Both the position numbers and the translations under genes were made by a program. A stretch of DNA of 64,000 bases, taken from Escherichia coli. GTDB taxonomy: Bacteria; Pseudomonadota; Gammaproteobacteria; Enterobacterales; Enterobacteriaceae. The stretch lies in the NCBI RefSeq assembly GCF_016026235.1, contig NZ_CP065613.1; one strand, 5' to 3'. Position 1 is the first letter of the stretch. Every line of letters starts with the position of its first letter. Positions 3,858 through 59,170 of this stretch are shown piece by piece. The notes beneath the pieces are model-generated. The model made no database searches. It was not told the DNA's origin and was given only the letters and a program-made list of their open reading frames with translations.

Positions 3858-3880
3858 ACATAGATAAGTCGTGCGCAGAT

Positions 3881-3966
3881 GCCTGATGCGACGCTTACGC
3901 GTCTTATCATGCCTACGGCTCATGGGCGAAATGTAGGCCGGATAAGGCGTTCACGCCGCATCCGGC
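3881..3966. repeat. REP pair (BIME) in the yaiL-frmB intergenic region
   Basis: GCCTGATGCGACGC...GTCTTATCATGCCTAC and GTAGGCCGGATAAGGCG...CGCCGCATCCGGC palindromes read directly. Confidence 0.8.
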
Positions 3967-3981
3967 AGTTGTGCACTATTA

Positions 3982-4815
3982 TCAACGCATATTCAGTTTA
4001 TTGGCGTGGTAGGCAATATGCTCGCCAATAAAACTGGAGACAAAATAATAGCTGTGGTCGTAACCCTCGTGATAACGGATTAACGTCTTGATATTCATCT
4101 CCTGGCAGATCTTTTCAAGATTTGGAGTCCGCAGCTGTTCCGCGTAAAAATCATCACTCAACCCCTGATCAACCATGATTTCCGCAACGCGTTGACCTTG
4201 TGAAATAAGACTCACCGGGTCGTAATACAACCAGGCATCTTTATTTTCACCAAGATATGCAGCAAAGGCTTGCTGTCCCCACGGTACTTGCGATGGGGAG
4301 ACAATGGGCGAAAACGCCGAGACGCTGGCATATTCATCTGGGTTACGTAACGCCAGCACCAGCGCGCCCAGCCCGCCCATAGAATGACCAGAGATAGACT
4401 TTTTGGCCGTTGCCGGAAAATGATGCATCACTAAATCCGGCAGCTCGTTGCGGATATAGTCATACATTTTGTAATGTTCATTCCACGGCGCTTGCGTCGC
4501 GTTCAGGTAAAACCCGGCACCTTGCCCGAGATCGTAACGGTCGGCATCTGCGACATGACTGCCTCGCGGACTGGTGTCCGGCGCAACAACAATAATGTTG
4601 TGCTCAGCCGCGTAACGCTGCATCCCCGATTTAGTAATGAAATTCTGCTCGTTGCAGGTCAGGCCTGAAAGCCAGTACAGCACCGGCAATTTTTCATTCG
4701 CGGCTTTTGGTGGGAGATAGACGCCGACATTCATTTCACATTTCAGTGATGCGGAATAATGCCGATACACATTTTGCCAGCCGCCAAAGCTGGCATGTTT
4801 TTCAATGAGTTCCAT
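3982..4815 (-). CDS. frmB: S-formylglutathione hydrolase
   Basis: 277-aa ORF; esterase motif GHSMGG; position downstream of frmA. Confidence 0.95.
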   Translation of the reverse strand: MELIEKHASFGGWQNVYRHYSASLKCEMNVGVYLPPKAANEKLPVLYWLSGLTCNEQNFITKSGMQRYAAEHNIIVVAPDTSPRGSHVADADRYDLGQGAGFYLNATQAPWNEHYKMYDYIRNELPDLVMHHFPATAKKSISGHSMGGLGALVLALRNPDEYASVSAFSPIVSPSQVPWGQQAFAAYLGENKDAWLYYDPVSLISQGQRVAEIMVDQGLSDDFYAEQLRTPNLEKICQEMNIKTLIRYHEGYDHSYYFVSSFIGEHIAYHANKLNMR

Positions 4816-24493: not shown

Positions 24494-24844
24494 CGGTGGT
24501 GTCCATAAATTGAATGAAGGTAACTGAGCGTATTTATACTACTCATTGATGGATTGCAAAGGGCGAATTAGTGCAATAATAGTGTTAAAAACGTAACGGC
24601 GCGTAAACACGATCTTTTTCCTGCTCACCAATGCCTGCATTTGTGATCCTGCGCGTGTTAATCCGCTTATGTAAACAATCTTTGGTTTGTGAAATCCGTC
24701 GAAACAATTCTTATGGCCAGGCTGGCGAACTAAGCGCCTTGCTATGGGTCACAATGGGCGGTTTCATTTGGCTGACGCTTTGTAGCGGTCATGCGGTTAA
24801 TACACAGCAGTTGTTAAAACGATAAGAAGTTAGCAGGAGTGCAT

Positions 24845-26065
24845 ATGTTTAAGTCTTTTTTCCCAAAGCCGGGAGCGTTTTTTCTCTCGGCCTTTGTTTG
24901 GGCATTGATTGCCGTTATCTTCTGGCAAGCCGGTGGGGGTGACTGGGTGGCGCGTATCACCGGCGCTTCCGGGCAGATCCCGATTAGCGCCGCGCGTTTC
25001 TGGTCGTTGGATTTCCTGATTTTTTACGCTTACTACATTGTTTGCGTAGGACTTTTTGCATTGTTCTGGTTTATCTACAGCCCGCACCGTTGGCAATACT
25101 GGTCAATACTCGGTACTGCACTGATCATCTTCGTCACCTGGTTTTTGGTGGAAGTCGGGGTTGCCGTCAACGCCTGGTATGCACCGTTCTATGATCTGAT
25201 TCAAACCGCGCTAAGTTCGCCGCATAAAGTCACTATCGAACAATTTTACCGCGAAGTGGGCGTCTTTCTGGGGATTGCGCTGATCGCGGTAGTGATCAGT
25301 GTGCTGAATAACTTCTTTGTCAGTCACTACGTGTTCCGCTGGCGTACGGCGATGAACGAATATTACATGGCGAACTGGCAACAACTGCGTCATATCGAAG
25401 GCGCCGCACAGCGTGTGCAGGAAGACACCATGCGTTTTGCTTCAACGCTGGAGAATATGGGGGTCAGTTTTATCAACGCCATCATGACGTTGATCGCCTT
25501 CCTGCCGGTGCTGGTAACGCTCTCCGCGCATGTGCCGGAGCTGCCGATTATCGGGCACATTCCGTATGGTCTGGTGATTGCCGCTATCGTCTGGTCGCTG
25601 ATGGGGACCGGATTGCTGGCAGTGGTAGGGATCAAACTGCCGGGGCTGGAGTTTAAAAACCAGCGAGTAGAGGCTGCCTACCGTAAAGAGCTGGTTTATG
25701 GTGAAGACGATGCCACGCGCGCGACGCCGCCTACGGTACGCGAGCTGTTTAGCGCCGTACGGAAAAACTATTTCCGCCTCTATTTTCACTATATGTATTT
25801 CAACATCGCCCGCATTCTCTATTTGCAGGTCGATAACGTTTTCGGTTTGTTCTTGCTGTTTCCGTCAATTGTTGCCGGTACGATTACGCTCGGCCTGATG
25901 ACGCAGATTACCAACGTTTTTGGTCAGGTTCGCGGTGCTTTCCAGTACCTGATTAACTCATGGACCACACTGGTTGAGTTGATGTCTATCTACAAACGTC
26001 TGCGCAGCTTTGAACATGAGCTGGATGGTGACAAAATTCAGGAAGTAACCCATACCTTGAGCTAA
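24845..26065 (+). CDS. sbmA: peptide antibiotic/microcin transporter SbmA
   Basis: ORF 24839..26065; ATG at 24845 ([17 protein letters not shown]...) gives 406 aa. Confidence 0.95.
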
Positions 26066-26077
26066 AAAGGAGAAGTA

Positions 26078-27172
26078 ATGTCGCGCGTCAATCCTCTATC
26101 TTCGCTGTCATTGTTGGCGGTTCTGGTTTTAGCGGGGTGCAGTAGTCAGGCTCCGCAACCGTTGAAAAAGGGCGAAAAAGCGATAGATGTAGCGAGCGTC
26201 GTGCGGCAGAAGATGCCTGCGAGCGTGAAAGACCGCGATGCCTGGGCGAAAGATCTCGCCACCACCTTTGAAAGTCAGGGGCTGGCACCGACGCTGGAAA
26301 ACGTCTGCTCGGTGCTGGCGGTGGCGCAGCAGGAGTCAAATTATCAGGCAGATCCGGCCGTTCCGGGCTTAAGCAAAATCGCCTGGCAAGAGATTGACCG
26401 TCGTGCTGAACGGATGCACATTCCTCCTTTTCTGGTTCATACCGCGCTAAAAATCAAATCGCCAAACGGCAAAAGTTATAGCGAACGGTTAGATTCGGTG
26501 CGTACAGAAAAGCAATTGAGCGCGATTTTTGACGATCTGATCAGCATGGTGCCAATGGGGCAGACGCTGTTTGGTTCGCTTAATCCGGTGCGCACCGGTG
26601 GGCCGATGCAGGTCAGCATTGCTTTTGCCGAACAGCATACCAAAGGGTATCCGTGGAAAATGGACGGTACAGTCCGTCAGGAAGTCTTTAGTCGCCGCGG
26701 CGGGTTGTGGTTTGGTACTTACCATTTACTGAATTATCCCGCCAGTTATAGCGCACCGATATACCGTTTTGCTGATTTTAACGCTGGCTGGTACGCCAGC
26801 CGTAATGCCGCGTTTCAGAACGCGGTCACTAAGGCCAGCGGCGTGAAGCTGGCACTGGACGGTGATTTAATTCGTTACGACAGTAAAGAACCCGGGAAAA
26901 CCGAACTGGCAACGCGCAAACTGGCGGCAAAACTGGGGATGAGCGACAGCGAAATTCGTCGTCAGCTAGAGAAAGGTGACAGCTTCTCTTTTGAGGAGAC
27001 GGCGCTGTACAAGAAAGTTTATCAACTTGCCGAAGCGAAAACGGGTAAATCACTCCCCCGCGAAATGTTGCCTGGCATTCAACTGGAAAGCCCGAAAATC
27101 ACCCGCAACCTGACTACGGCCTGGTTTGCGAAGCGCGTAGACGAACGGCGGGCGCGTTGTATGAAACAGTGA
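26078..27172 (+). CDS. yaiW: lipoprotein YaiW (DUF1615)
   Basis: 364 aa; lipobox LAGCSS; directly downstream of sbmA. Confidence 0.9.
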   Translation: MSRVNPLSSLSLLAVLVLAGCSSQAPQPLKKGEKAIDVASVVRQKMPASVKDRDAWAKDLATTFESQGLAPTLENVCSVLAVAQQESNYQADPAVPGLSKIAWQEIDRRAERMHIPPFLVHTALKIKSPNGKSYSERLDSVRTEKQLSAIFDDLISMVPMGQTLFGSLNPVRTGGPMQVSIAFAEQHTKGYPWKMDGTVRQEVFSRRGGLWFGTYHLLNYPASYSAPIYRFADFNAGWYASRNAAFQNAVTKASGVKLALDGDLIRYDSKEPGKTELATRKLAAKLGMSDSEIRRQLEKGDSFSFEETALYKKVYQLAEAKTGKSLPREMLPGIQLESPKITRNLTTAWFAKRVDERRARCMKQ

Positions 27173-27230
27173 TCAAACAGGAATGTCATGCCAGATAAGG
27201 CGTTTTAGGCCGTATCTGGCAACGTAAATC

Positions 27231-27539
27231 TTACTGGCGGCGATGTCGCCAGTGCAGCCATAGCGCCACCACTGCAAAAATGAGGCAGCCTACTAAAAAC
27301 GGGATCAGCCCGAAAATGGTGCCGACACCTAAACCAATTTCCACCCGTGGGCGACCTGTTTCCTGGACCTGCATTAAACGCTCATAGACGCCGGGCGCAT
27401 GCACTAACAGGTTCAGCAATTGCGCCCCAGCCCAAAAGCAAAACAGCACAAACAACGCATAGGCAATGTTGCCAGGCGTTGAAGAGGCATTGCGATATTT
27501 TCCGCTAAACAGCGATTTTGACAGGGTGAAATCAGCCAT
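27231..27539 (-). CDS. yaiY: inner membrane protein YaiY (DUF2755)
   Basis: 102-aa hydrophobic ORF convergent with yaiW. Confidence 0.9.
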
Positions 27540-27798
27540 AAAAACCTCCGGAAGTCATCTGCTTCTCTTCTGGTGTGATACCAGCGGCTTATGGCAAGTC
27601 TGACAGGTCATTTAGATTGTCAATATCAGAATCATGGTAAATTGATGTTGGGAATATTCCCGAAGCGTGAATCTTCGTTGCGAGTCACAAAATGGCAATC
27701 TTAAGTTAAATTTATTAACAATTATAAAAATGTTGTCTACACCACAGACGGTTGTTGCAGAATATGCAAGGATGTTGTTTTTCGTTAACGGAGCAGCC

Positions 27799-28011
27799 AT
27801 GAATCTGCCTGTAAAAATCCGCCGTGACTGGCACTACTATGCGTTCGCCATTGGCCTTATATTCATTCTTAATGGCGTGGTGGGGTTACTGGGATTTGAA
27901 GCAAAAGGTTGGCAGACCTATGCCGTCGGTCTGGTGACGTGGGTGATTAGTTTCTGGCTGGCGGGGTTGATTATTCGTCGTCGCGATGAAGAAACTGAAA
28001 ACGCCCAATAA
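27799..28011 (+). CDS. yaiZ: small membrane protein YaiZ (DUF2754)
   Basis: ORF 27667..28011; ATG at 27799 (MNLPVKIRRDWHYY...) gives 70 aa. Confidence 0.8.
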   Translation: MNLPVKIRRDWHYYAFAIGLIFILNGVVGLLGFEAKGWQTYAVGLVTWVISFWLAGLIIRRRDEETENAQ

Positions 28012-28034
28012 GAATATTATCGGGCGTTAAAATA

Positions 28035-29129
28035 TTACATTGTGGTTTTCAATGCGTTATCCGCAGCGTGACGCTCCAGCGCCAGCTCAATCAAACGTGT
28101 GATCAGATCGGTGTAACCCAGACCGCTGGCTTGCCACAGCTTCGGATACATACTGATGTTGGTGAAGCCAGGCAGTGTGTTGATCTCGTTGATCACCACT
28201 TCGTTCTCTGGGGTTAAAAACACGTCTACACGCGCCATGCCTGCGCATCCCAACGTCTGATAAGCCTGAACGGCAATCGCCCGGATCTTATCGTTGATTT
28301 CTGGCGCAATGGCTGCCGGAACTACCACTTTCGCGCCATCTTCGTCAATGTACTTGGTGTCGTAGGCATAGAAATCGCTGGTGAGTACGATCTCGCCACA
28401 GGTGCTGGCTTGCGGATTGTCGTTGCCCAGAACTGCGCATTCGATCTCACGACCTTTGATCCCTTGCTCAACGATCACTTTATGATCGAACTCGAACGCC
28501 AGATCGACGGCAATTGCGTACTGTTCTTCACTGGTTACTTTGCTGACACCAACAGAAGAGCCCTGATTAGCCGGTTTTACAAACAGTGGTAACCCCAGTT
28601 TAGACTCCACTTCGGCAAAACTGATGTTGTGACGATTAGCGCGCGTCAGGGTAATAAATGGCGCAATGTTCAGCCCGGCATCGCGCAGCAGACGTTTGGT
28701 GACATCTTTATCCATACAGGCTGCTGAAGCCAGAACATCAGAACCTACAAACGGTAAATTGGCGACCCGCAGCATTCCCTGCAAGGAACCATCTTCGCCC
28801 AGCGTACCGTGGACAATCGGGAAAATGACATCCACCGTCGGCAACGGCTGACCGTTTTGCGCGTCGATAAGCTGATGCTCATGTTTACCTGGCACCTGCG
28901 CAAGGCTGGTCGCCGAAGGGCGCAACGCAATATGGGCAGGATCGTCTGCATTTAGCAGATAATTGCTGGCATCGCTGACGTGCCATTGCCCTTGTTTATC
29001 AATGCCCAGCAGCACAACGTCGAAGCGACTTTTATCAATGGCATCGACAATGTTTTTTGCCGATTGCAGAGACACTTCATGTTCCGCTGATTTACCACCA
29101 AAAACGATTCCTACCCGCAGTTTTTCCAT
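28035..29129 (-). CDS. ddlA: D-alanine--D-alanine ligase A
   Basis: 364 aa; ATP-grasp Ddl sequence. Confidence 0.95.
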
Positions 29130-37148: not shown

Positions 37149-37259
37149 AAACAATGACACAACGTCCATGGAGCAAGTTACAGCATAAAACGCATAATAT
37201 TGCTGCGCTAAAAATTATTGCCCGCCGTAGCGAATAATTATATGCCTGGTGTGGCTTCG

Positions 37260-37297
37260 TACGCCGGATAAGACGCGGCAGGCGTCGCATCCGGCAT
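37260..37297. repeat. single REP element
   Basis: GCCGGATAAGACGCGGCAGGCGTCGCATCCGGC palindrome. Confidence 0.7.
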
Positions 37298-37314
37298 TTA
37301 AGGAAAATCAGCAA

Positions 37315-39259: not shown

Positions 39260-39283
39260 AAAACCCAGGCAATTGGCGCATCA

Positions 39284-39374
39284 TGCCTGATGCGACGCTT
39301 GCCGCGTCTTATCAGGCCTACAAAATGTGCCAGAACCGCGTAGGGCGGATAAGGCGTTCACGCCGCATCCGGCA
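39284..39374. repeat. REP pair (BIME) in the mak-araJ intergenic region
   Basis: GCCTGATGCGACGCTTGCCGCGTCTTATCAGGCCTAC ... GGGCGGATAAGGCGTTCACGCCGCATCCGGC. Confidence 0.8.
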
Positions 39375-39401
39375 ATAAGCAACGCACACCGTGACAGTAA
39401 T

Positions 39402-59054: not shown

Positions 59055-59068
59055 TTAAAACGTAAAAT

Positions 59069-59170
59069 TGCCTGATGCGCTACGCTTATCAGGCCTACGT
59101 TATTTCAGCAATATATTGAATTTACGTGCTTTTGTGGGCCGGACAAAGCGTTTACGCCGCATCCGGCATG
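59069..59170. repeat. two REP elements (BIME-like) in the yajD-tsx intergenic region
   Basis: GCCTGATGCGCTACGCTTATCAGGCCTAC and GCCGGACAAAGCGTTTACGCCGCATCCGGC palindromes. Confidence 0.8.

Follow-up and report, generated by a model that had tools for sequence, protein, structure and literature searches.

The window analysed here is a 64,000-nt stretch of an E. coli chromosome of the O157:H7 type, in which positions 27000–27400 are 100% identical to strain TR01. Within it, the yaiW and yaiY genes converge on a short gap occupied by a palindrome, with sbmA preceding yaiW and with yaiZ and ddlA beyond yaiY. The features referred to below are:

24839–26065, plus strand: sbmA
26078–27172, plus strand: yaiW coding sequence, its TGA stop ending 16 nt before the hairpin foot
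27173–27230, no strand: yaiW-yaiY gap, 58 nt, an Escherichia-specific insertion relative to genera with overlapping stop codons
27185–27188, plus strand: position of the ‘GTAG’ foot, reading TCAT here and TCAG in K-12, with an intact GTAG only in the orthologous loci L004 and L006
27185–27221, minus strand: unit assigned as a degenerate Y-type REP (covariance model, Y consensus, Rfam naRNA4 alignment)
27189–27201, no strand: left palindrome arm, TGCCAGATAAGGC (repeat finder)
27202–27208, no strand: loop, GTTTTAG (the canonical Y REP loop is GTTTAC)
27209–27221, no strand: right palindrome arm, GCCGTATCTGGCA (repeat finder)
27231–27539, minus strand: yaiY coding sequence, its TAA stop (27231–27233, minus strand) 9 nt from the hairpin foot
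27799–28011, plus strand: yaiZ
28035–29129, minus strand: ddlA

An earlier note on this DNA had placed a hairpin, TGCCAGATA...TATCTGGCA, at 27189–27221 in a gap of 58 nt; the coordinates are exact, and the yaiW stop (ending at 27172) and the yaiY stop (starting at 27231) leave precisely that distance. The 9-bp stem and 15-nt loop that it gave are accurate as far as they go but incomplete, as the nominal 15-nt loop holds three further pairs past a single A.G mismatch and the repeat finder returns arms of 13 nt each, 92% complementary (12 pairs plus the mismatch), around a 7-nt loop. The minimum free energy of the 58-nt gap RNA is −21.4 kcal/mol on the plus strand and −19.0 kcal/mol on the minus strand (z = −5.2 and −4.5; 0/200 shuffles as stable), and that of the hairpin itself in this strain is −20.0 and −18.7 kcal/mol, respectively. 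The window holds 13 perfect hairpins of at least 9 bp, where dinucleotide shuffles give 3.0, and scaling from the window shuffles gives a chance expectation of ~0.003 such hairpins per 58-nt gap. The hairpin is real and non-random, and its strength is far above chance.

No site was called at the hairpin by a terminator scan, and the 12 nt beyond the stem (ACGTAAATCTTA on the plus strand, TGACATTCCTGT on the minus strand) are not U-rich in either direction. The hairpin therefore lacks the U-rich tract of ~7–8 nt 3′ of a GC-rich stem that marks an intrinsic terminator, and the earlier note was right both that no U-tract flanks it and that it is not a canonical intrinsic terminator. A promoter scan of 26000–28200 found no sigma-70-like sites, which places the hairpin outside any promoter region. 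A canonical intrinsic terminator, that of ddlA, lies 800 nt away (28000–28028, minus strand; AACGCCCGATAATATTCTTATTGGGCGTT then TTCAGTTTCT), partly inside the yaiZ coding sequence (27799–28011). It is likewise a stem-loop past a gene end, but differs from the yaiW/yaiY hairpin in having a U-rich run (TTTTCAGTTTCT), in being called by the scan and in coinciding with a strong Term-seq 3′ end (K-12 399790, minus strand; Adams et al. 2021).

Repetitive extragenic palindromes (REPs) of E. coli are imperfect palindromes of 29–37 nt, preceded by GTAG and with a conserved AA.GC bulge (Corneloup et al. 2021, PMC8266576). The element here belongs with the Y-type REP or BIME palindromic unit (group 2 REP of Ton-Hoang and Corneloup), being an imperfect palindrome of the same length that matches 28/35 positions of the Y consensus, the best full-length type (30/35 in both K-12 and locus L006). 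In the classical orientation (GCC...CTAC) the REP reads on the minus strand, the sense strand of yaiY; under the GTAG-first naming used by Corneloup et al., it is the plus strand that counts as the ‘REP’ strand of this element. The minus-strand reading is TGCCAGATACGGCCTAAAACGCCTTATCTGGCATGAC, and canonical Y-type REPs elsewhere in the window read TGCCGGATGCGGCGTGAACGCCTTATCCGGCCTAC. The stem mismatch of the hairpin falls at the conserved REP bulge position: the A.G mismatch of the bulge is kept here and the second mismatch (A.C) is now an A-T pair, while both mismatches are kept in K-12, ZH193, L005 and L006.

A covariance model, R1, was built from 15 canonical REP units of the window with the candidate excluded, and the whole window was searched with filters off. 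On the minus strand the candidate was recovered at 24.9 bits (E 3.8e-6), and its plus-strand score was 8.9 bits. Nothing unrelated in the 64 kb rose above 11 bits, and the training units all scored 44–61 bits; a canonical REP outside the training set (59134–59168), found by the covariance model only, scored 40 bits. Canonical REP/BIME elements are located at 1464–1914, 3873–3976, 37256–37302, 39278–39383 and 59055–59168, the first being a cluster of nine alternating REP units with a period of ~101 nt. The family is thus multi-copy, with 16 canonical units elsewhere in the window and 13 within 7 kb of K-12 sequence. The element is extragenic and lies wholly inside the convergent yaiW-yaiY gap, a position typical of REPs, which tend to sit at 3′ ends of tandem or convergent genes (~60% between convergent genes; bioRxiv 10.64898/2026.03.23.713779).

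The element departs from a Y-type REP in several respects. Its foot is TCAT rather than GTAG, one of the two bulge mismatches is now paired, the signature pair is A.T (CCAG/CTGG) where the canonical one is G.C (CCGG/CCGG), the loop is 1 nt longer, and it stands as a single unit, not in a BIME pair. The REP transposase TnpA_REP requires GTAG and tolerates no substitution there (PMC8266576). With the foot lost, the element in this strain would be an immobile relic and is filed as a REP-derived remnant rather than as an active or canonical REP. That the hairpin is REP-derived is held with high confidence, and this identity accounts for how the hairpin arose, why it is palindromic and where it sits; the element is a decayed and otherwise ordinary REP, with nothing new in kind. 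The K-12 RefSeq annotation has no repeat feature in the yaiW-yaiY gap, but the record is equally blank over obvious BIME clusters, so the blank gap says nothing about the presence of a REP.

In Rfam no family reaches its gathering score at the hairpin. The sole meaningful match is naRNA4 (RF02564; 31.3 bits, below the gathering score of 59.5), the first hairpin of which aligns base for base with the yaiW/yaiY hairpin, the GGCAACG tail included. The naRNA4 RNA is transcribed from the REP325 cluster. REP325 differs from the element here in being a multi-unit cluster between tandem genes. Weak matches to miRNA and sRNA families were regarded as chance (mir-277 over the gap, E >0.4; all others, E >4). 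The match of the naRNA4 ‘second hairpin’ to 27233–27253 was also considered as a second REP and rejected, as this segment is yaiY coding sequence and is conserved in genera without the REP. It holds a perfect 7-bp inverted repeat (ACTGGCG-N7-CGCCAGT) in the last codons of yaiY (W-R-H-R-R-Q), and similar inverted repeats are present at the yaiY 3′ end of Citrobacter, Salmonella and Klebsiella, all without the REP. This repeat may follow from the WR...RQ codons themselves, or it may be a coding-embedded hairpin that serves where there is no intergenic gap.

Among complete E. coli genomes, 5,420/5,426 have the yaiW-yaiY locus and 5,419/5,426 retain the hairpin element. In E. coli HNSQ2209, IS1 is inserted in the gap adjoining the hairpin foot (corresponding to window positions 27180–27188) and is flanked on each side by a copy of GGAATGTC; both genes and the hairpin are intact.

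A scan for YaiW with one genome per species yielded 80 loci, in each of which the stop-to-stop gap was measured. Each of the six further Escherichia loci (K-12, E. albertii and four additional lineages) has a gap of 52–61 nt that holds this palindrome, and R1 matches every one of these gaps on the yaiY strand (24–40 bits). Outside Escherichia, R1 found no match in the yaiW-yaiY gaps, and in ~50/66 loci that have yaiY the two stop codons overlap (−4 to −16 nt) or are 0–13 nt apart: overlap is seen in Klebsiella, Enterobacter, Kluyvera, Raoultella, Yokenella and many others, and a gap of 3–13 nt in several Citrobacter. As the C-termini of YaiW and YaiY are conserved throughout the compared loci and the gap is absent or short in most other genera, the gap in Escherichia is an insertion of ~50 nt that brought in the REP. 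The insertion predates the split of E. coli and E. albertii, with a single event before Escherichia diversified as the apparent history.

Other, unrelated palindromes occur at the same junction in Salmonella (loci L018/L019), C. sedlakii (L017), Citrobacter (L009/L012/L013), Buttiauxella (L051/L054/L065) and Cedecea (L069). The Buttiauxella junction has a repeat of its own (GTAGGGCGG...CCGCCCTAC), and some of the junction palindromes are species-specific REP-like repeats. At the nearby yaiZ/ddlA junction, one or two REP units are found in L005, L006 and L007 (~4480–4580), E. albertii among them; this gap is only 23 nt here and in K-12 (window 28012–28034), and REP presence there is lineage-dependent.

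Within the species, the gap and hairpin have diverged faster than their surroundings. Between K-12 and this strain 6/58 gap positions and 4/33 hairpin positions differ, against 18/646 nearby four-fold sites (p = 0.01 and 0.02, respectively), so that hairpin divergence is ~4 times that of neighbouring four-fold sites; in the yaiY-yaiZ gap 5/259 positions differ. Of the four variable hairpin positions, three have the REP-consensus state in K-12, as would be expected if the alleles had decayed independently from an ancestor closer to the canonical REP. Between Escherichia lineages the stem is the conserved part, with 4/24 stem columns varying versus 16/25 flank columns (p = 0.0012), and in comparison with E. 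albertii 4/33 hairpin positions differ versus 101/212 four-fold sites (p = 1e-4). The locus-specific A.T pair that stands in place of the canonical G.C is kept in 13/13 and 12/13 sequences, which makes homogenisation by gene conversion from canonical REPs unlikely.

All alleles tested fold, from −11.3 kcal/mol (K-12, plus strand) to −23.0 kcal/mol (E. albertii). Covariation is weak: among 13 Escherichia sequences two pairs change on both sides, and 82/500 shuffles do likewise. One stepwise path can be followed, from GCC/GGC in this strain through GCC/GAC in K-12 and APEC O78 to GTC/GAC in Sanji, with the intermediate forming a G.U pair on the yaiY-sense RNA only. Several changes make pairs from mismatches and recur independently; for example, column 44 changes from C to T in O157-type alleles, in SCU-313 and 64.1 and in E. 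albertii, where the palindrome is nearly perfect. Changes from mismatch to pair are also expected, without selection, from template-switch ‘quasipalindrome’ mutation, and quasipalindromes are documented hotspots of such mutation in E. coli (PMC7202029).

The preferred reading is that the element is a decayed Y-type REP, inserted once before Escherichia diversified and now immobile, that would act as a two-way exonuclease barrier with at most partial termination; taken as a whole, function included, this statement is about evenly balanced between right and wrong. The barrier and termination roles are the most likely ones by analogy with other REPs. The sbmA-yaiW and yaiY transcripts would both carry the hairpin in their tails, and the hairpin, folding on either strand, would block 3′-to-5′ exonucleases (PNPase, RNase II), so that both mRNAs would gain a defined, protected 3′ end. 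Polymerase would mostly be released further downstream, by Rho acting on untranslated antisense RNA or by collisions of converging polymerases, and the hairpin’s own share would be partial termination at most.

The model for such a role comes from Rho-dependent transcripts, in which the 3′ end falls precisely at a stem-loop that lacks a U-tract and stops PNPase and RNase II; 24% of these stem-loops are REPs (Dar and Sorek 2018, PMC6061677). The yaiW/yaiY hairpin shares with these protective structures a stable, U-less stem-loop just past a stop codon, followed by untranslated antisense RNA, and the downstream excess of C over G, a signature of Rho loading, is mild (C:G of 18:14 and 20:12 in 60 nt). 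According to Harris et al. 2026 (bioRxiv 10.64898/2026.03.23.713779), REP325, a 3′UTR REP used as an experimental model, stabilises upstream mRNA and also acts as a terminator that depends in part on Rho, and 207/704 convergent gene pairs carry a REP, with both genes more highly expressed. Against the preferred reading, that preprint found mRNA half-life not to be generally affected by terminal REPs, most genera have no gap, the hairpin being dispensable there for the yaiW-yaiY pair, within-species divergence of the hairpin is fast, and covariation is weak. A stability or two-way 3′-end role, as the earlier note had offered among its options, was a sensible guess by analogy that agrees with the literature on REPs, even though the REP identity itself had been missed.

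Mapping of 3′ ends by Term-seq had been proposed as a check, and the K-12 tables of Adams et al. 2021 allow it in part. Neither the Term-seq nor the Rho-region tables (three conditions) have an entry between 396446 and 399675, and thus no 3′ end or Rho region at the hairpin (398,9xx–399,0xx), though the ddlA terminator is present; as the tables apply thresholds and the K-12 allele is the weakest, the missing entry is not decisive. Table 1 of ExcludonFinder (PMC12288877) lists yaiW-yaiY among pairs with overlapping transcripts, both of which reach the gap in K-12. This entry was rejected as evidence of read-through, because two mRNAs sharing one palindrome would satisfy its definition equally well.

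The main competitor to the preferred reading, and a serious one, is that the REP landed harmlessly between two 3′ ends, has no consequence for yaiW or yaiY, and that its stem persists by template-switch self-repair and not by selection, which is possible, though on the unlikely side. Overlapping stop codons without a hairpin in most genera, the decayed GTAG foot, a within-species divergence above the local neutral proxy and the missing Term-seq 3′ end in the K-12 tables of Adams et al. 2021 are all consistent with a neutral history, as are the recurrent changes from mismatch to pair, given the hotspot status of quasipalindromes (PMC7202029). It is harder to reconcile with a stem far better conserved across Escherichia species than the gap flanks and four-fold sites, or with retention in all but a handful of complete E. 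coli genomes. The palindromes acquired at this junction by at least five other lineages suggest a benefit, but tolerance of insertions explains them equally well. A broader proposal built on them, which we regard as speculative and probably wrong, is that selection has repeatedly favoured a ‘separator’ hairpin at this junction: a two-way 3′-end element would have evolved convergently, with constraint on the yaiY-sense RNA, Escherichia recruiting a REP and keeping its stem through the history of the genus despite the lost transposase signal, and at least five other lineages independently gaining unrelated palindromes.

Release of RNA polymerase at the hairpin in both directions, by weak intrinsic termination or by head-on collisions positioned by the stem-loop, is unlikely. 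The palindrome does fold on both strands, stem-loops are reported to position Rho-independent collision termination at convergent genes without intrinsic features (Wang et al. 2022, bioRxiv 10.1101/2022.10.23.513370), and 78 REPs lie inside 306 sequence-defined bidirectional terminators according to bioRxiv 10.64898/2026.03.23.713779. However, neither strand has a U-tract or a terminator call, the K-12 tables of Adams et al. 2021 hold no 3′ end or Rho region here, and collision termination is reported to work best at highly expressed pairs (bioRxiv 10.1101/2022.10.23.513370), with no sign of high yaiW or yaiY expression found. Read strictly, the earlier suggestion of a bidirectional terminator thus finds no direct support, having no entry in those K-12 tables. 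Attenuation of YaiY translation is less probable again: a REP hairpin less than 16 nt past a stop codon can stall the terminating ribosome and lower protein output, a rule attributed to Liang, Rudd and Deutscher 2015 in PMC12306157. The foot is 16 nt from the yaiW stop and 9 nt from that of yaiY, under the limit, so stalling could apply to yaiY, and the stepwise change of the stem through a G.U pair on the yaiY-sense RNA only would be in keeping with it; but the effect was demonstrated for canonical REPs and the G.U path is a single case.

REPs are the most abundant and longest-known repeats of E. coli, and they typically take the form of a hairpin between convergent genes, so that one more instance carries little weight on its own. 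For annotation, degenerate REPs without GTAG slip past pattern-based lists, yet are found by a structure-aware model. The yaiW-yaiY locus also provides a natural series for the effects of REPs in 3′ untranslated regions, comprising genera without a gap, genera with differing palindromes, and strong (~−20 kcal/mol) and weak (~−11 kcal/mol) alleles within E. coli.
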